Assembly (NCBI RefSeq): GCF_003231495.1
Contig: NZ_PQWO01000004.1
Span: 90,001 to 122,000, forward strand
Length of the DNA stretch: 32,000 nucleotides
Direction of reading: 5' to 3'
Source: Acaryochloris thomasi RCC1774
GTDB taxonomy: Bacteria > Cyanobacteriota > Cyanobacteriia > Thermosynechococcales > Thermosynechococcaceae
A model generated the notes under the pieces. That model ran no database searches, was not told the DNA's origin, and worked only from the letters and a program-made list of their open reading frames with translations. Positions 5,892-20,280 of this stretch are shown here, one piece after another. Position 1 is the stretch's first letter; each line of letters starts with the position of its first letter. The translations under genes and the position numbers were made by a program.

Positions 5892-6104
5892 TTATATATC
5901 ACTAGGCTCAAGTCCAGTTTTTTTAGAAATACGTGACAGCACACGAGGGCCAATTTCTTCTCTGTCATGGAAGGCAAAGACAAAATCCGGCCAGTCGTCA
6001 CGGGCAAGAATACGGTGAGAACCAGATTGGCGTTTAACGGTCCAGCCAATTTTGAGCAGTGCTGCCAAAACTCGTTTGGATTTAGTGCTTCCCCACTGGC
6101 TCAT
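5892..6104 (-). CDS. hicA: type II toxin HicA (mRNA interferase)
   Basis: 70-aa ORF. KRVLAALLKIGWTVKRQSGSHRIL...HDREEIGPRVLSRISKKTGL matches the HicA pattern, including the GSH catalytic His. It overlaps hicB by ATGA (6101..6104). Confidence 0.85.
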   Translation of the reverse strand: MSQWGSTKSKRVLAALLKIGWTVKRQSGSHRILARDDWPDFVFAFHDREEIGPRVLSRISKKTGLEPSDI

Positions 6105-6319
6105 GCAGCATTAAACGTAACGCTTACCAATTCAGGCTGAGTCTCACCACTCTCAATGCGTTCGGCAAGCACACGCAAGGCCAAGGCTTGGACTTTAGCT
6201 CTAGCTTCCTCTGGAGTTTGACCATAAAGCATTACCCCAGATAGTTCTGGGATCTCTGCAATCCAGCGCCCATCTTCTTCTTGCTCAATTTCAATATCAA
6301 AAATCATGGCTACGGCCAC
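6101..6319 (-). CDS. hicB: type II antitoxin HicB-like (short form, no obvious DNA-binding domain)
   Basis: 72-aa ORF. FDIEIEQEEDGRWIAEIPELSGVMLYGQTPEEARAKV matches the HicB N-terminal fold pattern. It is translationally coupled to hicA. Confidence 0.8.
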   Translation of the reverse strand: MAVAMIFDIEIEQEEDGRWIAEIPELSGVMLYGQTPEEARAKVQALALRVLAERIESGETQPELVSVTFNAA

Positions 6320-6719
6320 TGTATAACTATGACCATAGTAGCAAGTGCAGCTCTCGCAAGACCTGACAGTGGCTAGTCTGGGGTGCGAGTATTAATTTTT
6401 AACAGCATAGACAGTAGAATGTTTCGAGCCTTCTCTGCACTGGCTTGTTATACCAATTCTCTACAGATATGAACTGTTTCATTTTTAAGATCGACCAGCC
6501 CATAAGGATTCTGAGCTTTCATTTAGGTCATTTCCCTGGGTAATTGGTATTAGGGCCCAACGAGAGGACGACTTCAGTTTAGGTTCGTAAATAACGGCCA
6601 ACCATCAGGGGCGTGAGCACTAATCTAAAGTGCTCAACTAGCAGGGGGATTCGAACGTCCCGCTGCATTGTTTGGTTAGATAATAAAATAAAATCTGAAT
6701 TTAGGATAATAAGCAATTT

Positions 6720-8294
6720 TTATTGAGAAAAAGGGTTGTTTTTGGCCCAACGAGAAACAGCCAACTCAAGCACATCTAATTGCGGCTCAATCGATCTATA
6801 CCAATGCTTTCTTGCATCCGAGGGCATACAGCTTGCAGCTGCGAGGACCGCTCTACGTTGCCAGTGGGGGTGTTCAAAAAGAGTCCGCCACTGCGATTGA
6901 AACCAATGTCTTTGCTGAGATCGACCGATTGCTAGGATCAGTTTGCGCTTACATGCCTGATCACGTTCTCGATTGTAGATATTGACAAACTGATCTTCAT
7001 TATCCCACTCACGAGAACTCGTGAAAACCTGCATGATCCACATACGATGGTAAGCTAGCTCACTTACTATTGAATCTTCAAGTAAATCCAATATTCTTGA
7101 ACCCAGCATTGATCTTTCATCAACATTTAGAAATCTCAAGTTAGTAAAGTATGAAATTATATCGACAAAAGCGGGGATTAAAGATTCTAAATTGTCAAAA
7201 ATGTCTTCAATTATACCGTCATCTCCTAGCTGCCCTAAACGTCTAAGACAAAATTTGATTACAGGTAAATCGGGCACTTCAGAATCAGCCTCTTCTTGAA
7301 AAAGTTCTACAAGATTGAGGGCATCAACAATTTCTTTCTGTTCTAATGTTAGATCATCATATTCAATCTCTTCATAAGGATTTTCTAGTCCCAATTCTTC
7401 TATCAAGTTTTGAAAACGCTCATGAAGCGAATCCATCTCTCTATCTAACGGAGTAGCTAAGAATTGTTGGCGAAAATCCAGTGCAGGAAGTATAGCTGTT
7501 TTGTTGGGCTGGAGAGAAAGGCCATGATTTCGAAATAATGTTTCAGCTAAAAATGCTATTTGTTGATACGCCAACGTCTCACTAGAGGCAAATATTCGAT
7601 AGTCATCGTTGAATCGAATAAAATCAACGCCATTGGCTAAGAGCGCTTCGTCAACGTCGGAAAGAGCTGTCTCTGCCAATATTCTTGATGGGGCACTACC
7701 AACTGGAATACCGAAAGTTTCCGTTCCATTCCAACCGGACATTAGGCTCATTAGCCCTTTAACATGATTTGATTTTGTGGTCGCAGCACGTAATCCATTT
7801 TCGAGTCGATGATGGTAAATACGAGAGTAGAAATCTGATATGTCAGTGGTCGCAACGACACCAGTATCTCCATTAGATAAGAGTTTTGAGCGACACTTTT
7901 CCAGAAATTGTCTATATCCAATATCTGGCTCAAAAAGCTGACCTTCTCTCGTTGTCGCCACCCGATAGGAAAACACTCTTTCGTCCTGGGATGATATGCG
8001 TCGATCTTCCAAGTCATCTGCAATTTCATAAATTAGTGCAGAATAAACCAAAAAATCTAATGGATCAAGCTGTGTAATTACACGAAATCCATATTTCGCT
8101 TTTGGAGATAATAGAGTACGTGCTGGACGTGTACACCATTCTAATACATTTATATCTTTGAGCTTGTCGAGTACATTATCCCAATCATAAGAAATTGCTT
8201 GATATTCAAAAGGTGCTGGAAATACGTCTGTATCTCCAAATTCTAAAGCATGAGCTATTGCCCAATTCCAGCTTCGTTCTTGTAATTTAAGCAA
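6720..8294 (-). CDS. Abi/UG-type (defence-associated) reverse transcriptase with helical-repeat C-terminal domain
   Basis: 524-aa ORF with a TTG start at 8294.
RT motifs read in the translation:
- KYGFRVITQLDPLDFLVYSAL (motifs 1/2)
- VATTDISDFYSRIYHH (motif A)
- FGIPVGSAPSRILAETALSDVDEAL (motif B)
- FIRFNDDYRIFA (motif C, YxDD variant FNDD)
- HGLSLQPNKT (motif D)
The N-terminal AIAHALEFGDTDVFPAPFE is typical of bacterial non-LTR, non-intron RTs. About 220 C-terminal residues look alpha-helical-repeat-like. There is no maturase/endonuclease X domain and no retron VTG signature. Confidence 0.85.
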   Translation of the reverse strand: MLKLQERSWNWAIAHALEFGDTDVFPAPFEYQAISYDWDNVLDKLKDINVLEWCTRPARTLLSPKAKYGFRVITQLDPLDFLVYSALIYEIADDLEDRRISSQDERVFSYRVATTREGQLFEPDIGYRQFLEKCRSKLLSNGDTGVVATTDISDFYSRIYHHRLENGLRAATTKSNHVKGLMSLMSGWNGTETFGIPVGSAPSRILAETALSDVDEALLANGVDFIRFNDDYRIFASSETLAYQQIAFLAETLFRNHGLSLQPNKTAILPALDFRQQFLATPLDREMDSLHERFQNLIEELGLENPYEEIEYDDLTLEQKEIVDALNLVELFQEEADSEVPDLPVIKFCLRRLGQLGDDGIIEDIFDNLESLIPAFVDIISYFTNLRFLNVDERSMLGSRILDLLEDSIVSELAYHRMWIMQVFTSSREWDNEDQFVNIYNRERDQACKRKLILAIGRSQQRHWFQSQWRTLFEHPHWQRRAVLAAASCMPSDARKHWYRSIEPQLDVLELAVSRWAKNNPFSQ

Positions 8295-8762
8295 TAGAAT
8301 TCCTTAGTTTTATGGCTAACTATGTTTAGGAGGCAAATCGCCTCCTATCACGAACTTGACTGATAGCTTCTGTACCTCTAAAGCCAAGCCGTCACAAGCA
8401 TAGCAGTTGTACACAAAGATCTGTTTTCCAGAAATTTGCCGAGATGCAAATGAAAAATCGATTGCTCGTGAGCAAGTCTAGACAGGTATCTCAGCAGAAA
8501 ACTCATGAGTTATCCAAGGGCCCTATCAGGCAAACCTCCGGTCTATATTCTCCTGTCGGGCGTTATCAGGCGTTTCACCACCCAACCCATCAATGCTTGT
8601 TAACTCAGTATTCTGAAAGCAAGCAGTCTAAAAATTAGCTCTCTTGAGATGAAAATCAATAAGTCATGCATCGGTAAGAGCAGGATTGGAGCAATCACCG
8701 CCAAGATATTCTACGTCTCCATAATCCTCTAAATAACAGGTTAGTGATTCAGACTTTTTCTC
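8295..8762 (-). other. 468-nt ORF-poor leader between mnmE and the RT; candidate RT-associated ncRNA and promoter region (hypothesis)
   Basis: No convincing CDS on either strand.
Small hairpins, palindromes and repeats:
- hairpins at 8328-8346, 8434-8451 and 8462-8475
- palindrome at 8501-8510
- nested hairpin at 8595-8624
- 8-nt direct repeat TATCAGGC at 8524 and 8564
Known DRT2, DRT9 and retron systems place their ncRNA immediately upstream of the RT. Confidence 0.25.
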
Positions 8763-10136
8763 TTACTTTCCAATACAGAAGCGGCTAAAAATACGCTCCA
8801 AAACTGATTCGGTGGCTTCCTCCCCTGTGATTTCGCCCAAAGCATGAATAGCTCCACGTAGATCAATCGTCCAGAAGTCGAGGGGGAGCTGATCTGCGAT
8901 CGCAACCAACACAAACTCCAAAGATCCCTTCGCCTCAGTCAGCGCTGCCGCCTGCCGCTGATTGATGGCAACATCTAGATCCGCCGCCTGCAAACCGGCT
9001 TGAGTAATAGCGAGAATAGCCTGCTCTAAATCTTCAATCCCTTGTTGCTGGGCGGCCACTGTGGTTACAACTTGGGTAATAGCTGCCGGATAGTGAACCT
9101 GATCGGCATCGGCAAGATCGACTTTATTGATCACCAACACGAGCGGGCGATCTTGGACGGTTTCGTAGAGCTGCTGATCGGCCTCGGTCCAGCCGGATTC
9201 AGCATCCATCGTGAGTAAAATTAGGTCGGCGCTTTGGGCTGCAGTTTGCGATCGCAACACCCCAATCTGCTCCACTGGGTCCAAAGTCTCCCGAATTCCA
9301 GCAGTATCCAAAACCTGCACCGGAATGCCCCCGACCACCAATTGCGACTCCACCACATCTCGCGTGGTCCCCGGCAGCTCAGTGACAATAGCGCGATCGC
9401 TCCGACTCCAGGCATTGAGCAAACTCGATTTACCCACGTTGGGACGACCGACAATCGCCACTTTTAACCCTGACCGCAGTAGCTCTCCCTGGTCGGCAGT
9501 GCCTAAAATGCGCTTCAGTTCGGTGGCAATCTGCCTCAGTTCTGCCTGTACCTGTGCCTCATCAAGGGGTGGCAAATCATCTTCAAAATCAATGCGGGCC
9601 TCGATTTCAGCCAGCACATCTAAGCAGGACTGCCGCAACTGACGAATCGGCTGCGCTAATTTTCCCTGTAGTCCGGCTAAAGCGGTCTGGGCCGCTTGTG
9701 GTGACTGTGCGCCAACGAGATCAGCAATGCTTTCCGCTTGGGTCAGATCAAGACGGCCATTCAAGAAGGCTCGGAGAGTAAATTCTCCTGGTTGTGCTAA
9801 CTTTGCTCCGGCTTGAATGCAGGCCTGCAAAACTTGCTGCACAGCAATGATGCCGCCGTGACAGTGGAACTCAACCACATCTTCGCGGGTGTAGGAGCGA
9901 GGTGCCAGCATCAATAGCAGAAGGGCTTCATCGATGATTTGCCCCTCAGAGTCTTGGATGTGCCCGTAGAGGATGTGGTGGCTCTCCCATTTTTGGTGAC
10001 CAGGGGCGTGGAAGAGGTGGGTTGCGATCGCAACTGCCTCCGGCCCCGACAACCGCACGACCCCAATACTGCCCTGCTGGGGAACGATAGCGGTAGCAAT
10101 GGCGACAATGGTGGTAGTGGAGGTTGCAGATGGCAC
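8763..10136 (-). CDS. mnmE: tRNA uridine-5-carboxymethylaminomethyl modification GTPase MnmE (TrmE)
   Basis: [24 protein letters not shown]-terminus, G-domain motifs [15 protein letters not shown] and NKVD, and C-terminal FCIGK. The track ORF extends to 10277, but that extension is non-conserved and overlaps the divergent YkuD gene. GTG at 10136..10134 gives a typical length of about 457 aa. The start is uncertain. Confidence 0.9.
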
Positions 10137-10801
10137 AGCGGAAGATTGTGGTGGGGGTACTGATCCTATCGGGAGCAGCCGGATTGTATGGGGTATTGAG
10201 TCGCTTGGGCTACGTGACGCCCGTTTCGGCTCTCCCCAGTGTATTGTGTTTCGATGGCTGTCTGTCTGCAGAGGCAATGCATAAGCTACCGGCAGAGAAA
10301 GGACTTTTGAACGGCGATGCAGCTCTTACAAGTTTGCTCGGGACAGATACTCCCAATAAACAGAATATTTCGGTGCTGATTGAAAAGGCCAAATATCGAC
10401 TGACTATCTACGACGATCGCCAGCCCATCAAGTCCTATCCGATTGTGTTGGGGTCAGCGCCGACGGGGGACAAGCTGAGAGAGGGCGATCGCAAAACCCC
10501 TGAGGGTATCTTTCGGATCCGCGATCTGTATCCCCACGAGAGTTGGTCGAAGTTTCTGTGGCTCGACTATCCCAACAAAACCTCATGGCGTAAGCATCTA
10601 GCGGCCAAGCGATCAGGCAAGTTAGATTTGTCCGCTACGATTGGCGGTGAGGTTGGTATTCACGGTGTACCAGAAGGCAACGATGCCTGGATTGATGCTC
10701 GGCAGAACTGGACCTGGGGCTGTCCTTCGCTGAAGAATAAGGATATTGATGAAATATACAACGTTGTACAAGTCGGCACTGTCGTTGAGATTGTGCCCTA
10801 G
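10124..10801 (+). CDS. L,D-transpeptidase (YkuD domain) with N-terminal membrane anchor
   Basis: 225-aa ORF with a TM segment ([18 protein letters not shown]). YkuD pattern: [19 protein letters not shown]...[10 protein letters not shown]...IHG...WTWGCPSL (catalytic H...GC). Confidence 0.8.
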
Positions 10802-11090: not shown

Positions 11091-12204
11091 TTACTCTGCG
11101 GTCATCTGGGTCTCCTGCCGGAGGTAGGCTTCGATAAAGGGGTCTAGAGCACCATCCATGACGTTCTCAACGGCGGTCGTTTCTTCATTCGTGCGCAAAT
11201 CTTTGACCATTTGGTAAGGATGAAAGACATAGTTGCGAATTTGGCTGCCCCAAGCCGCTTCCACCATGTCTCCGCGAATGTCGGCGATCTCTTGGGCCTT
11301 TTGTTCTTGGGCAATGATCAATAGTTTGGCTTTGAGCAACGCGAGGGCTTTCTCTTTGTTCTGGAGTTGCGATCGCTCCTGCGTACACCGCACCGCCAAG
11401 CCTGTTGGTAGATGAACAATCCTCACCGCCGTCTCCACCTTGTTGACGTTTTGTCCTCCCTTGCCGCCAGAAAGCGAAGTGGTAATCTCTAGATCTTTAT
11501 CGGGGAGATCTACCTGTACCTTTTCATCAATCTGGGGCATAATCTCGACCCCAGCAAAGCTTGTCTGGCGTTTGCCGTTGGCGTTAAAGGGCGAAATGCG
11601 GACTAATCGATGGGTTCCCTTCTCCGATTTTAGATAGCCGTAGGCGTAGCGACCGCTAATCTCTAGCGTGGCAGATTTGAGGCCGGCCTCGTCTCCCTCA
11701 GAGATCTCTGCGAGCTGCACCTTGTAGCCTTGGCGCTCAGCCCAGCGAGTATACATGCGTAGCAGCATCTCAGCCCAGTCTTGGGCATCCGTCCCACCTG
11801 CGCCAGCATTGAGGGTGAGAATAGCCCCATTCTGATCGTAAGGACCGGCTAACAGACGCTGTAGCTCCCACTGGTCGAGCTGTTGGCCGAGTGTTGTCAG
11901 ATCAGACTCGGCCTCGTCAAGGAGTGCCTGATCCGTTTCCAGTTCCAGGAGCTCTAAAACAGCTCTGGAATCTTCTAAAGTGTCCTGCCACTGCTGGAGC
12001 TGGTCAATACTAGCCTTGAGATCATTGAGATTCTGGAGTGTTTTCTGAGCGCTATCTTGGTCATCCCAAAAATCAGGCTGGGCTGCAAGCTGTTCTAGAT
12101 CAGCAATTTGAGCATTCAGGGCAGGTAGGTCAAAGATAGTCCTGGGTTTTACCCAGGCGATCAGAGAGTGTCGCGATCTCGCGTTTAAGATCTAAGGCTT
12201 CCAT
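11091..12204 (-). CDS. prfB: peptide chain release factor 2, requires programmed +1 ribosomal frameshift
   Basis: The track ORF 11091..11768 holds the C-terminal part, with SPF (RISPFNA) and GGQ ([15 protein letters not shown]). Hand translation from ATG 12204..12202 gives [24 protein letters not shown], then in-frame TGA at 12132..12130. Shifting +1 (skipping T 12132) reads [14 protein letters not shown]... in frame with 11768. Total is about 370 aa. Confidence 0.9.
12129..12135 (-). promoter_or_regulatory. RF2 autoregulatory +1 frameshift site CTT TGA C
   Basis: The minus-strand sequence ACCCAGGACTATCTTTGAC matches the canonical prfB shift site (CUU UGA C), with a weak SD-like AGGA a few nt upstream. 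Confidence 0.85.
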
Positions 12205-12375
12205 TGGCGAAGGCAGTCCATCAACAATTTTTTGATTGTAGCGGACACAACTGTCCCAATTTTTGCCACAATTGTTTGTAACATTTGTTTAAATAGTTAT
12301 CAGCTTAACAACAGATGCCATTCTTAACGACTGTTAAGCTCGCGACTAGTCCTCTACTCCTTTCCCATCTTGGGT

Positions 12376-17008: not shown

Positions 17009-18016
17009 CTAAGGACGACAGAAGTATATTGTCATTGAACTAGAATCCTTGAAAGATAGCTCTGATTGGGTAAAGGTATCTTGATCGCGGGTCAAGTGGC
17101 TAAAGGTTTGGGCGTCGATCATCAGTTCTCTGGGGCGAATATGGCCTGTCAAGCCAATAATTTCAGGCATTTGAGGACTGATCAATCCCATACTTTGGTA
17201 AGGACTGGCGCGCAACAGACCTAAAGCTGATTTCCCCGATGTCACCATGGCCCCGGCCTCAAAACTTATGTCTAACTTAGATAGTGGTTTGTTTGTTGGG
17301 GAGGGGATTGGTTCAGATCCTGCGCTCAAAATCTCTCGACCTGCTTCAACAGCCTGTTGGGCAGGAGATAGCGGCACGGGTACTAAACCAAAGATTGCTA
17401 AAATCGTACGTCCCATCTGGGCAGTAACAACCCCCGAACGATCAACAACGGTTGTCGTTACTGCCGCAAAATATGTCTCAATGGCCTGAATGACGGTCAT
17501 GGGGGCTGCTGCCTCAGCATCCATTAATGGGGTGATTGTGATGTTGAGAATCGCAACATCGACGAGAGCAGAGAAATGAGAATCATCGGCGTTGAGCGAA
17601 GAGGGGCGGCTCTGAAAAAGAGACGAAAGATGCCGTTTCTGTTGTTGAGTCTTAAGGGCCAGATAATTTCCCTGCTGCTGCAGTTCTAGCTGCTGCTCTT
17701 CTGCCTCACTGCCGTCCAGAAGTAAGATCCAGTCGCTGTCAGTTGCAGGAACAATATGAATGTCCATTGAGCGTCCCTGCTGATCCTTTACCAGGGGTAA
17801 AAAAATAGGGTCATTTTCTAAAGGAATGAGGCCGGTTAAGACGTCAAGGCTATTGTGGGCAGTATCTCCTCGCTGTAACGTCTGTAACTCGTAATGTTCA
17901 AGCTGCCCACCAAGTTCTAAGATGGTGCCGTTTGCATCAACTCTGAGGTAGGCAGGCAAATATTGTTCTGCAATGTAGTCACAGATATGTTGAGCGAGTG
18001 GTGAGGGAAGGGTCAC
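17009..18016 (-). CDS. hypothetical signalling protein with degenerate class III nucleotidyl cyclase-like C-terminal domain
   Basis: 335-aa ORF with a GTG start. Residues of about 150-230 (VAILNITITPLMDAE...VIQAIETYFAAVTTTVVDRSGVVTAQMGRTILAIFGLVP...AVEAGREIL) follow the cyclase-homology-domain pattern, but the metal-binding Asp positions are substituted. The N-terminal domain ends with a PAS-like WILLLDGSEAEEQQLE. Assignment is by eye only. Confidence 0.45.
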   Translation of the reverse strand: MTLPSPLAQHICDYIAEQYLPAYLRVDANGTILELGGQLEHYELQTLQRGDTAHNSLDVLTGLIPLENDPIFLPLVKDQQGRSMDIHIVPATDSDWILLLDGSEAEEQQLELQQQGNYLALKTQQQKRHLSSLFQSRPSSLNADDSHFSALVDVAILNITITPLMDAEAAAPMTVIQAIETYFAAVTTTVVDRSGVVTAQMGRTILAIFGLVPVPLSPAQQAVEAGREILSAGSEPIPSPTNKPLSKLDISFEAGAMVTSGKSALGLLRASPYQSMGLISPQMPEIIGLTGHIRPRELMIDAQTFSHLTRDQDTFTQSELSFKDSSSMTIYFCRP

Positions 18017-18020
18017 TATA

Positions 18021-18521
18021 CTAACGGTTAACCATTTGGGTGGCTAAACTGTGAAAGCATTCTTCAACCCCAAGCCCTGCTTTCGCGCTGCTTTTGATCA
18101 CAGTCCACTGACTGTCTTTAGAAAGCTGTTCAATGGTTTGCTCATCGAGTTCCCATTCGCTGGTCAAATCAGACTTATTCAACATCATCATAATCGGTAC
18201 ATCACCAATCTCTTTCTTTATTTCAGCTTGAAGAGAGATCGCTTTATCTAAGGTTTCACTACGTGTCCCATCAACAACAAGGATATAGCCTGATGAACCT
18301 CTGAGATAAGACATCCTGATCTCTTGAAATTCATCTTCCCCATGAATATCCCACAGGATCAAATTGACCGTTTGCTCTCCAATTTGCATGGTTTTCTTGT
18401 CAATCTTGACGCCCACGGTTGTTTGATATTTGTCAGAGTAAATACCTCTAACAAACCGTGAGACCAAGCTTGTTTTCCCTGTCGCGAAGGCACCAATCAT
18501 GCAAATCTTCTTTTGCAGCAT
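18021..18521 (-). CDS. Ras-superfamily small GTPase (Rab/Ras-like, prokaryotic Rup/MglA-like group)
   Basis: 166 aa. Motifs: G1 GAFATGKTS, G2 TTVGV, G3 WDIHGED, G4 NKSD, G5 SSAK. There are no extra domains. Confidence 0.85.
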   Translation of the reverse strand: MLQKKICMIGAFATGKTSLVSRFVRGIYSDKYQTTVGVKIDKKTMQIGEQTVNLILWDIHGEDEFQEIRMSYLRGSSGYILVVDGTRSETLDKAISLQAEIKKEIGDVPIMMMLNKSDLTSEWELDEQTIEQLSKDSQWTVIKSSAKAGLGVEECFHSLATQMVNR

Positions 18522-18534
18522 ATATGAATCAAAG

Positions 18535-20280
18535 TTATTCCAAAGTTACCTTAAACGAAACTCGGCGTTCTGACAGACCCTGCTCTTGTGTTTGAGGACC
18601 TTGAGCAGCTCCAAGGGGCTTTATCTTCAAAATCGATGGGCTGATTTGACGACGCATGAGACGCTCTCGAATTGCATTGGCTCGTGCCTGACTGATTAAG
18701 AAGTTCTCACGCTCTGTTCCTACCCTATCAGCTCGCCCTTCGATGGAGAGGATAAGCTTGAGGTTGAGGGCGGTTGCGAGCTGTGTCGCGGCTTCCACAT
18801 CCTGGGCAAGCTGTTGAAATACAGATTCGCTGGTAGGCAGGGGTTGCGATCGCCCTTCGTCGAACAAAATATTGCGTCCTTCAATTTGCTTTTGTAGGCG
18901 ATTAAGAGTTTGCCGTTCAGCAGGCTTGAGCTGTTCTGTGCTGATCTGCATGACGCCAGGAATCTGTAGAGCTTGTTTCTGTAGCTGCGCGATCCAGTCT
19001 TGCTTTGCGGTGCCTGCTGCTATCAGCGTATTCTGCCCATCAACGGAGAGGGATACTGTCGCAGGAGGCTGGAGGCGCTGCTCGGCTCTGGCTTTTACTA
19101 GCTCTGGATGAAAAGAAAGGTATGGCTCCCAGGTTGTTTTGACTTTTTGCGGGTTTATCTTGTTGGGTTCTGCGAGGGAGAGCGGATCGACGGCTAGAGG
19201 GTCGCGCATGCCTGAAATCAAAATCTTGCGGTTTTTCAGCTTGCTGTCTACGATAACCAGCCCCGGTCGCTGCTGCAGAGTTGCTACATAGTTACCCATC
19301 ACTTTGCGGCGTTGATAGACGCCAAAGAGCTGCCAGCCTATGCCCAGCAGAATTAGGCCAAGGAAGAGCCAAGCTAGCGGGGAAAGAGAGCGTCGCTTGG
19401 GTTTAAATTGAGCCTGTAGACACTCTTGTAGATAGGGCTGGCTTTGGGCAAAGGCGGTGTCGTCTCCCTGAAATTGCTTGAGGTCTTGGCTGCAAACAAG
19501 ATGAATCTTTTCTAGGACATCCTGAAATAATCCCCGAATGTCTTGGGGGGCTGTTCCCCGAATGACGCAGGCCATCAGCGCTTGGGGACCTTCCTCAATC
19601 CAGACGGTGAGTTCGCCGAATTGGAGGGTCTCGAGAGAATCTCCCCCCTCAACACGAAAGGAGTCTTTAATAAAGTCTTGAATAGCGGTCAACATAGCTG
19701 AGACGAGGTCTGCATCCTGGGCAATCACTGTGTCAGCGACAAGCTGCTGCAGCAGAAGGCCGGTATCTTTATGAATAAGCAGGACCTGCTCCACTTGATA
19801 GAGGAGGGTGCGCAGCAGCACAATCTCGGCGAAAGATTTACCGGTTCGTGCGGCTTCGATACGCCATTGAAAGCTTTGGAGAGACAGACTATGCTCTAGT
19901 CCTTCATTTAGAGATTGCGTTAAGTTCTGCAGAGCGGCGGAAACAGCTTTACGCGTTGCTGGACCAATGACGGGGAATAGCGCTTCGGACAGAATATTAT
20001 GATCTTGATTGACGGAATTTCGAATGGCATCTTCAACGGTGGGAACGGCGGCAGTGGTTAATTTCCCCTGGTCTTCAGCACTCAGAATGATTGCCTCTGG
20101 CAAGGCGCGGCTGATATCTTCTGGACGCAGCTTGAGATTCATGATCCGAGCCTGCAGTTCTGGTCCTAAGAGAAGCGATCGCAACTCATCAAGACTCTCT
20201 CCAGACTCATCAAGATGCTTATCCGGCTTATCTTGATTGTGCTGGGAGGATGGATTGTTCTCGGATGACAGATCGTGCAT
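18535..20280 (-). CDS. membrane protein with cytoplasmic N-terminal region and periplasmic OmpA/MotB-like C-terminal domain
   Basis: 581 aa with a single central TM helix (LSPLAWLFLGLILLGIGWQLFGVY). C-terminal OmpA_C pattern: LSIEGRADRVGTERENFLISQARANAIRERL...PLGAAQ. The cytoplasmic part contains a Roadblock/LC7-like stretch (VEQVLLIHKDTGLLLQQ...DADLVSAMLTAIQDFIKDSF...LQFGELTVWIEEGPQALMACVIRG). Confidence 0.75.
   Translation of the reverse strand: MHDLSSENNPSSQHNQDKPDKHLDESGESLDELRSLLLGPELQARIMNLKLRPEDISRALPEAIILSAEDQGKLTTAAVPTVEDAIRNSVNQDHNILSEALFPVIGPATRKAVSAALQNLTQSLNEGLEHSLSLQSFQWRIEAARTGKSFAEIVLLRTLLYQVEQVLLIHKDTGLLLQQLVADTVIAQDADLVSAMLTAIQDFIKDSFRVEGGDSLETLQFGELTVWIEEGPQALMACVIRGTAPQDIRGLFQDVLEKIHLVCSQDLKQFQGDDTAFAQSQPYLQECLQAQFKPKRRSLSPLAWLFLGLILLGIGWQLFGVYQRRKVMGNYVATLQQRPGLVIVDSKLKNRKILISGMRDPLAVDPLSLAEPNKINPQKVKTTWEPYLSFHPELVKARAEQRLQPPATVSLSVDGQNTLIAAGTAKQDWIAQLQKQALQIPGVMQISTEQLKPAERQTLNRLQKQIEGRNILFDEGRSQPLPTSESVFQQLAQDVEAATQLATALNLKLILSIEGRADRVGTERENFLISQARANAIRERLMRRQISPSILKIKPLGAAQGPQTQEQGLSERRVSFKVTLE

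Follow-up and report, generated by a model that had tools for sequence, protein, structure and literature searches.

UG7, which corresponds to DRT8, is a Class 1 group of UG/Abi reverse transcriptases (RTs) with a recognised solitary variant (165 members; Mestre et al. 2022, PMC9226505). [quoted passage not shown] The UG7 group is enriched in defence islands (PMC9226505). Class 1 DRTs are described as catalysing untemplated synthesis (PMC13174585). DRT4 (UG15), which we used as the mechanistic template, is a single-gene Class 1 system; it forms a hexamer, is activated by phage ssDNA-binding protein and produces random single-stranded DNA (ssDNA) in a Tyr-primed, template-independent manner. 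AbiK, Abi-P2 and AbiA, from Lactococcus and E. coli, are abortive-infection polymerases that use protein priming and untemplated ssDNA synthesis. [quoted passage not shown]

Here we describe a gene for a 524-aa RT-like protein in a 32-kb stretch of DNA from Acaryochloris thomasi RCC1774 (32,000 nt, analysed as a whole and referred to below as the window). The protein is a UG7/DRT8 member and hence a Class 1 UG/Abi RT, not an orphan. It shares with DRT8/UG7 proteins a length of roughly 520 aa, the RT plus alphaRep architecture and all of the common invariant catalytic residues; the difference is that the validated DRT8 carries an adjacent PD-(D/E)XK nuclease, whereas the A. thomasi protein is without one.

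Results and discussion

Gene and family membership

The UG7/DRT8 RT-like polymerase gene lies at 6720..8294 on the minus strand, from a TTG start to a TAA stop, as given by the ORF call together with the match to the PADLOC Drt8 model. The 524-aa ORF that the initial annotation had placed here, with the strand unstated, is confirmed. The start is preceded by an AAGGA ribosome-binding site at 8301-8305, and its position is kept in relatives, with ATG in most of them and TTG in both Acaryochloris copies. The protein is 100% identical to C1752_01591 of A. thomasi RCC1774, whose prior annotation is merely 'hypothetical protein'. One database yielded 744 homologues at E <= 1e-5 and a second one 517 representatives at E <= 1e-30, and we estimated a dN/dS of approximately 0.14 for the gene; this is therefore not a chance ORF, and the gene is under purifying selection. 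Full-length conservation of 55-88% extends over cyanobacteria, proteobacteria, Acidobacteriota (Pyrinomonadaceae), Bacteroidales and Poribacteria.

Residues 3-520 match positions 1-492 of the 493 in the PADLOC Drt8 (UG7) model with E = 2e-161 and 537 bits. The runner-up model, RT_UG21, has E = 7e-53, and the Drt6 model reaches only 1.3e-20. Distant loci also score as Drt8, with lower values of 456-502 bits. The RT nests in a named DRT type, DRT8 (UG7), with the same RT and alphaRep architecture, an outcome that the initial annotation had itself set down as refuting its reading. Identification as a maturase, retron RT or DGR RT is ruled out by NCBIfam scores far under cut-off (47 bits versus 300 for group_II_RT_mat and 23 versus 235 for retron), by the lack of any Rfam match to an intron or retron RNA in the window, by flanks devoid of noteworthy repeats, and by the alphaRep C-terminus. 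No examples of DRT8 were found in the ecoli_genomes set, which was searched with the DNA of loci L023 and L024, or in the phage collection. Plasmid matches were distant and uninformative.

Catalytic core and C-terminal domain

An RT-like fingers/palm core covers residues 1-300 (7395..8294, minus strand), as indicated by Pfam RVT_1 over residues 105-269 (E = 7e-12), by invariant columns, by the AlphaFold model and by PDB profile matches to the RT cores of DRT6, Abi-P2 and DRT4. All of the polymerase motifs reported as readable in the initial annotation were recovered, namely 1-2 (K65, R71), A (D151), B (G195-S203), C (F228-D231) and D (K265-T266). Motif A reads T150-D-I-S-D-F-Y156 (7827..7847, minus); its catalytic D151 is invariant, and I152, D154 and F155 are conserved to at least 90%. 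In motif B, G195-I-P-V-G-S-A-P-S203 (7686..7712, minus), G199 is invariant and G195 and P197 are conserved to at least 90%. Motif C, read directly from the sequence, is F228-N-D-D231 (7602..7613, minus). The residues invariant in the family are R71, D151, G199, D215, R227, D230, D231 and K265, with R71, D151, G199, D230, D231 and K265 unchanged in 135 sequences. As judged from its residues, the polymerase active site is intact, with catalytic D151, D230, D231 and K265 all invariant.

The helical C-terminal extension of about 220 residues noted at the outset corresponds to an alphaRep (HEAT-like helical repeat) domain at residues 317-519 (6738..7346, minus), assigned from AlphaFold and Foldseek. 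In the AlphaFold model, which has a pLDDT of 94.8 and a pTM of 0.92 over the whole chain, these residues are all-helical, with approximately 14 helices at pLDDT above 90. The residues of this domain conserved in the family are R450, W478, R481 and A482. The modelled protein is an RT fingers/palm core with a HEAT-like alphaRep solenoid at the thumb position, an arrangement with which the whole-chain superpositions are in accord. The C-terminal domain alone matched alphaRep, HEAT and ARM repeats in Foldseek (TM 0.57-0.62), with no HEPN or maturase match, and the whole chain was aligned over 520-563 columns with DRT6, UG15, Abi-P2 and AbiK. Both searches bear out the suggestion that the C-terminus is of the AbiK, Abi-P2 and Class 1 UG kind.

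The best whole-chain match is the DRT6 (UG12) cryo-EM hexamer 9wy8 (TM 0.62/0.65 over 563 columns), which is also the best PDB profile match (E = 2e-26) and likewise has RT and alphaRep in a single polypeptide; however, identity is only 14%, DRT6 belongs to another UG group and its motif C is YVDD. The other top matches are UG15/DRT4, Abi-P2, AbiK and AbiA. DRT4 (9vdo, 9l9s, 21ou) shares the replacement of the thumb by alphaRep, but the TM is only about 0.53 and its motif C is YIDD and not FNDD. AbiK, Abi-P2 and AbiA (7r06-7r08, 8oz7) have the RT-like core plus alphaRep, although at 13-16% identity and TM values of 0.40-0.51, and AbiA carries an additional HEPN domain, which the A. thomasi protein lacks. 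Since the best structural matches are to DRT6, DRT4/UG15, Abi-P2, AbiK and AbiA, we regard the protein as a Class 1 UG/Abi enzyme.

Two Rx4H strings in the C-terminal domain had been proposed as a possible HEPN-like nuclease signature. Both are present, RSQQRH at residues 458-463 (6906..6923, minus) and RTLFEH at 470-475 (6870..6887, minus), with a spacing of 6 residues and not 7. In conservation counts, R458 is found in 116/117 and H463 in 109/117 close homologues, compared with 16/106 and 11/106 distant members, so that the first string is a helix surface of the sub-clade and not a HEPN motif. The His of the second string is not conserved: H475 occurs in 47/117 close homologues and in approximately 13% of the family. 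No HEPN family was found in Pfam or NCBIfam searches of the protein. With the strings unconserved family-wide and the C-terminus without a HEPN fold, the proposed nuclease fails.

Proposed activity and candidate priming residue

As the initial annotation had held, the activity cannot be read from the sequence, because DRT8 is without an established mechanism. By analogy with the Class 1 relatives, protein-primed untemplated ssDNA synthesis is the most likely, and the best supported, of the activity options. The reading that we favour, and hold to be probable with considerable room for doubt, is that of a solitary-variant UG7/DRT8 polymerase encoded by a single-gene cassette of roughly 1.7 kb, in which Tyr-primed untemplated ssDNA synthesis would stop phage or host growth. 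The protein would form a homo-oligomer, as suggested by AbiK, Abi-P2, AbiA, DRT4, DRT6 and DRT7. The first dNMP would be attached to a tyrosine of the enzyme itself, predicted to be Y307 in the flexible linker between RT and alphaRep. The growing ssDNA, made with no nucleic acid as template, would pass through a narrow channel lined with the conserved arginines R71, R111, R227, R450 and R481. Upon phage infection, ssDNA would accumulate or be stabilised, and phage replication or host growth would be halted (abortive infection). The adjacent nuclease of the other DRT8 variant would be dispensable.

The linker from the RT core to alphaRep, residues 302-316 (7347..7391, minus), is acidic and predicted to be flexible; it is modelled as coil, and pLDDT is at its lowest there. 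The codon of Y307 is at 7374-7376 (minus). Y307 is the sole Tyr conserved to at least 90% in the family, its own value being 90-92%; it is found in 95/106 distant members and is invariant in the 26-sequence A5 set. This conservation and the location in the linker, where the priming residue of AbiA also sits, lead us to predict Y307 as the protein-priming tyrosine. In contrast, the priming Tyr125 of DRT4 lies in the palm. A DRT4-like palm residue was rejected here: at the position of Y127, the equivalent extrapolated from the alignment, most UG7 members (64 of the 106) have Trp. Y110, of the invariant-looking S-Y-R motif, was also rejected as the priming residue, being Tyr in just 56-65% of the family.

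Genomic context and the question of a partner nuclease

The only DNA homology between the window and a 12.4-kb locus of another Acaryochloris (L001) is a segment of 1724 bp (87%) made up of the gene with 27 nt on its upstream side and 117 nt on its downstream side. We take this segment, 6603..8321 on the minus strand, as the minimal horizontally transferred cassette. Its GC content is approximately 0.40, compared with approximately 0.50 in the flanks. No convincing terminal repeats were seen to bound the low-GC insert, and there are no mobility genes near the RT gene. That the gene is solitary was already part of the initial annotation and is confirmed: the gaps of 468 nt upstream and 400 nt downstream contain no ORF of more than 64 aa. 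Across 18 related loci no neighbour recurs. The sole adjacent defence-type genes are a HicAB toxin-antitoxin pair, and the window otherwise holds housekeeping genes.

The alternative that survives best, although in our estimate an unlikely one, is that the RT is a half-system whose DNA product acts with a PD-(D/E)XK (SduA_C-like) or other nuclease encoded in trans. It draws on the loss of defence in the tested DRT8 when the nuclease active site is mutated, and on one distant UG7 locus in which the RT and SduA_C are encoded on the same strand. However, searches of the window and of the DNA up to 6 kb from 18 close-clade relatives gave no SduA_C-type nuclease homologue, and no nuclease family was found among the ORFs of the window. 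A 1.7-kb gene that moves alone, into unrelated contexts and across phyla, is hard to square with a specific unlinked partner, and the single-gene Class 1 systems DRT4, AbiK and Abi-P2 are autonomous.

Distant UG7 loci adjoin GAPS4, OLD/AriA-like and PD-T4-10 genes. In L023, a 317-aa gene that lies downstream of the RT was considered as a DRT8 nuclease partner and rejected, as it is GapS4a of a separate GAPS4 system. The 307-aa gene of L022 proved unrelated to it.

The FNDD sub-clade

The FNDD noted initially as an unusual motif C is indeed present at residues 228-231. It is not idiosyncratic, however, [F/Y]NDD being the norm of a discrete sub-clade. Among 117 close homologues the first position is F in 90 and Y in 27, and the second is N in 115. 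The wider UG7 family has the ordinary YVDD; distant members carry YVDD, FVDD or YSDD, with N in only 3/106. The sub-clade also differs from the DRT8/UG7 family at three other positions, with V/Q192 replaced by E, K/R469 by W and E494 by A. T191 and E192, just before motif B, are sub-clade-specific; all of the sub-clade has E192, and V, Q or T stands at this position elsewhere in UG7. A further sub-clade-specific element is a helix pair in alphaRep, GR[AS]xQxHWFQSQWR. With N229 and E192 the sub-clade has a remodelled dNTP pocket, and its chemistry may depart from that of its relatives.

These substitutions could be read as marking a functionally distinct, nuclease-independent DRT8 offshoot, in which the remodelled pocket (V229N in motif C, V/Q192E) and alphaRep surface (K/R469W, E494A and the helix pair) would alter the DNA product, and the product itself would be the effector. 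We consider this unlikely. If it were true, one possibility would be a base-biased or protein-templated repeat DNA, of the kind lately described for Drt3b and DRT7.

Flanking sequence and the question of a template RNA

The initial annotation had listed templated cDNA from a neighbouring ncRNA among the possible activities, and our searches of the flanks gave this option no support. No Rfam match was obtained at either gathering or permissive thresholds. When the 600-nt flanks of 17 loci, whose proteins are 55-88% identical, were compared with one another by blastn in all combinations, no conservation was found, and similarity ends approximately 27 nt before the start codon. Folding of the flanks was no better than that of shuffled sequence (z = -1.3 and -0.6). 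A downstream hairpin and a T-loop-like string are not conserved in L001 in the pairwise alignment. The string GTTCGAATCC at 6647-6656 had raised the idea of a tRNA fragment or att site; ARAGORN found no tRNA, and the string, which has no conserved counterpart in L001, is probably due to chance.

It is accordingly improbable, in our view, that the enzyme is a templated RT copying a neighbouring or self-encoded ncRNA, as DRT2, DRT3a and DRT9 do. The non-coding gaps on both sides of the gene are unusually long, the 117 nt or so downstream are conserved with L001, and a template could lie within the mRNA itself, all of which would suit such an RNA. Against this stand the negative results above and the relatives in which little room is left for one: in three loci (L004, L011 and L013) less than 110 nt separates the gene, on both sides, from the nearest neighbouring ORF of 80 aa or more. 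The alphaRep architecture, moreover, is that of Class 1 and not of Class 2. The Class 2 systems DRT2, DRT9 and DRT10 share with the A. thomasi gene the UG/Abi RT super-lineage and a single RT gene, but they are without alphaRep and need an adjacent conserved structured ncRNA as template, neither of which is true here.

Since neither a partner gene nor a conserved flank is present, structured and Rfam RNAs are likewise absent, and only 1.72 kb is shared with the second Acaryochloris, we conclude that the gene is a solitary UG7 variant and not the nuclease-linked form.

Remaining alternatives

A decaying or domesticated remnant without a defence role, such as a passenger of a past horizontal transfer, would fit a location among housekeeping genes and apparently outside a defence island, with no mobility genes nearby and a GC content foreign to the region. 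We regard it as very improbable, as the ORF is intact and keeps all catalytic residues under a dN/dS of 0.14, full-length conservation spans several phyla, and UG7 genes, taken as a group, are over-represented in defence islands and protect against T5. A fusion of the RT to a HEPN-like RNase that would use the Rx4H strings as active site, as in AbiA, is hardly credible and already largely refuted by the family-wide counts and the purely alphaRep/HEAT/ARM matches of the C-terminal domain, even though the first string is kept in the sub-clade and AbiA is among the whole-chain matches.

Conclusions

The gene can be recognised as belonging to a catalogued family and is otherwise an ordinary finding of a genome scan. 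Few named defence reverse transcriptases are still without a mechanism, and DRT8 is among them; the sole variant that has been tested needs a partner nuclease. The sub-clade described here is tightly conserved and widely transferred and, if functional, acts as a single 1.7-kb gene. The gene is therefore a clean test case for what DRT8 enzymes make, and for how DNA synthesis alone might stop phage. The predicted priming Y307, the candidate channel residues R71, R111, R227, R450 and R481, and the sub-clade residues N229, E192, W469 and A494 offer handles on the enzyme.

Gene and family assignment

The reverse transcriptase (RT) gene at 6720-8294 on the minus strand encodes 524 aa from a TTG start codon, with an AAGGA ribosome-binding site 6 nt 5' of it. 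The start position is common to relatives (ATG in most, TTG in the two Acaryochloris copies), which bears out the length of 524 aa. In sequence the protein is 100% identical to the Acaryochloris thomasi RCC1774 entry 'hypothetical protein C1752_01591', and its sole Pfam match is RVT_1 (residues 105-269). The FNDD motif C (nt 7602-7613) and both Rx4H strings (residues 458-463 and 470-475) are present, which confirms the observation made in the initial annotation. With a dN/dS of 0.14, the gene is under purifying selection.

We found that the PADLOC Drt8 model aligns to RT residues 3-520 over model positions 1-492 of 493 (E = 2e-161, 537 bits). The runner-up model is RT_UG21 (7e-53), the NCBIfam Drt2-5 models fall far under their cut-offs, and NCBIfam holds no DRT8 model. 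The gene is almost certainly a member of the UG7/DRT8 family. DRT8 is UG7 of the Class 1 UG/Abi group and comprises two variants congruent with the phylogeny, one nuclease-linked and one solitary (PMC9226505). The tested DRT8 is of the nuclease-linked kind, which carries a PD-(D/E)XK nuclease gene (cluster 17); it protects against T5, and the RT and nuclease active sites are both needed. The solitary variant has 165 members, and for these the authors propose that the nuclease has an accessory role or works in trans (PMC9226505). The RT gene belongs to this already catalogued solitary variant. As to whether it nests inside a characterised type of identical architecture, it does so in name and architecture (DRT8/UG7), but the type lacks a characterised mechanism: reviews up to mid-2026 give no established mechanism for DRT8, and the PDB holds no DRT8 structure. 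The overall interpretation in the initial annotation is partly supported.

Structure of the C-terminal domain

The AlphaFold model, built from a family alignment of 135 sequences (27-88% identity), reached pLDDT 94.8 and pTM 0.92 and has three parts: the RT fingers/palm core, a coil (302-316), and about 14 helices (317-519). The best whole-chain Foldseek matches were all Class 1 UG/Abi enzymes, among them the DRT6 hexamer 9wy8 (TM 0.62/0.65 over 563 columns) and UG15/DRT4 (TM about 0.53), with Abi-P2, AbiK and AbiA also at the top. The group II intron RT 6ar1 ranked high, but with a TMq of only 0.44, and DRT9 ranked lower. Modelled alone (pLDDT 91), the C-terminal domain matched artificial alphaRep proteins and HEAT/ARM repeats (TM 0.57-0.62) and no HEPN, maturase or retron-accessory fold in Foldseek. 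Together with the whole-chain search, this confirms the proposed alphaRep-type, Class 1-like C-terminus.

The Rx4H strings had also been read as a possible HEPN-like nuclease signature. Among close homologues (n=117, at least 55% identity) R458 and H463 are indeed kept in 116 and 109 sequences, whereas just 16 and 11 of the distant UG7 representatives (n=106) have them, and H475 is in the minority even within the sub-clade (47/117). Since these counts combine with an alphaRep-only fold, we rejected the HEPN reading.

Genomic context

Between the RT gene and its neighbours mnmE (468 nt upstream) and HicB (400 nt downstream), no ORF exceeds 64 aa. We compared 18 genome loci with RT proteins 54-88% identical, from cyanobacteria, gamma-, beta- and deltaproteobacteria, Acidobacteriota, Bacteroidales and Poribacteria; sister Nostoc genomes excepted, no neighbouring protein recurs across them. 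The distant UG7 member P0196 (31% identity) is of the other variant, with a same-strand 293-aa gene bearing the Shedu-type PD-(D/E)XK domain SduA_C, and neither the window nor any close-clade locus encodes a homologue of this nuclease.

The RT gene is followed immediately, on its own strand, by genes for a HicB-like antitoxin (6101-6319) and a HicA toxin (5892-6104), which overlap by 4 nt. None of the 18 related loci has this pair beside its RT, so the two genes probably form a toxin-antitoxin module of their own. The remaining ORFs of the window are housekeeping or regulatory genes. The mechanical call of mnmE (8763-10277, minus strand, 504 aa, TTG start) leaves about 55 N-terminal residues ahead of the TrmE_N domain; translation probably begins further downstream, the gap to the RT then being no shorter. 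The release factor 2 gene prfB (11091-12250, minus strand), split over two frames at CTT TGA C (frameshift site about 12130-12135), is a classic programmed +1 frameshift and not a pseudogene. An apparent minus-strand operon at 17009-20280, encoding an OmpA-domain protein (581 aa), a small Ras/Roc-like GTPase (166 aa) and a 335-aa protein without a Pfam match, is unrelated to the RT.

The RT gene forms a low-GC patch (about 0.40 versus about 0.50 in the surroundings). Its GC stays low in the RT genes of loci L001-L019 (0.35-0.50, mostly 0.35-0.46), in Nostoc, Bacteroidales, Thiodiazotropha and Halomonas alike, and the proteins remain 54-88% identical across phyla. Neither at 6603-8321 of the window nor in L001-L019 is the gene accompanied by an integrase or transposase. 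Contigs of viral or prophage origin carry distant UG7/DRT8 genes that adjoin other defence genes (L023 3964-6013; L020 6884-8575; L024 4208-4846). The neighbours are GapS4a (GAPS4 PD-(D/E)XK), found in a Vibrio locus, an AAA ATPase of the OLD/AriA/NsnB-like kind, and a PD-T4-10_B homologue. Unlike the window, these loci have the character of defence islands. In three metagenomic contigs (L030-L032; 2445-6129 in L030 coordinates) nuclease-linked UG7, that is RT and SduA_C gene, adjoins a serine recombinase/resolvase gene, which suggests one way in which such cassettes move. On the Aminobacter plasmid NZ_AP017988.1 (L026 4001-7686), a distant UG7-like RT is followed by a same-strand 'reverse transcriptase family protein' gene, possibly a two-RT arrangement reminiscent of DRT3.

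Search for a flanking RNA, and proposed mechanism

A template RNA in the flanks had been considered as well. Flank similarity among the loci does not extend beyond about 27 nt before the RT start codon, and the whole 12.4 kb of L001, from a second Acaryochloris genome, matches the window only at 6603-8321 (1724 bp, 87%), a stretch made up of the RT gene, the 27 nt before it and the 117 nt after it. Rfam gave no match even at permissive thresholds, neither flank folds better than shuffled sequence (z = -1.3 and -0.6), and several relatives have, on both sides, less than 110 nt between the gene and the nearest ORF of at least 80 aa. An obligatory flanking ncRNA, as in DRT2, DRT3 or DRT9, is therefore unlikely; a template may lie within the RT's own mRNA. 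A tRNA T-loop-like string, GTTCGAATCC, stands in a small hairpin on the RT strand (6647-6656), 64-73 nt past the stop codon. It may be a decayed att-site remnant; ARAGORN found no tRNA there, the string is not conserved in L001, and it is probably due to chance.

The Class 1 enzymes studied so far (AbiK, Abi-P2, AbiA, DRT4) start from a protein primer and use no nucleic-acid template, DRT7 being a protein-templated variant. DRT4 is a single-gene hexamer whose ssDNA turns toxic once a phage DNA-binding protein keeps host exonuclease away from it. The priming tyrosines sit in flexible elements that differ between enzymes: the fingers in AbiK, the palm in DRT4, the RT-alphaRep linker in AbiA and the first alphaRep helix in DRT7. 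Y307 is the only tyrosine kept in at least 90% of the family (95/106 distant members, invariant in a 26-sequence set), lies in the flexible acidic linker (residues 302-316) of the model, and is the predicted priming residue. We rejected the DRT4-equivalent position Y127, mostly Trp in the family, and Y110, kept as Tyr by only 56-65% of members. Candidates for contacts with the product, like those made by DRT7 from its fingers, palm and alphaRep, are the conserved arginines R71, R111, R227, R450 and R481. From these relatives we infer that the RT primes ssDNA synthesis on its own tyrosine and works untemplated, and we consider the full mechanistic proposal reasonably probable.

Motif C and sub-clade substitutions

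Asparagine occupies the second position of motif C in 115 of the 117 close homologues (first position F in 90 and Y in 27, followed by D-D) versus 3 of the 106 distant representatives, which mostly have YVDD, FVDD or YSDD. On these alignments FNDD, at first noted as unusual, is the hallmark of a discrete sub-clade; the nearest sequence outside it has only 42% identity. The sub-clade further departs radically from the rest of the family where residues are otherwise highly conserved: E at 192 (V/Q/T elsewhere), N at 229 (elsewhere V in 62, S in 16, A in 9), W at 469 (K/R in 97/103) and A at 494 (E in 96/103). These substitutions are the sole feature of this RT that could conceal novelty, and it is doubtful that they hide something new.
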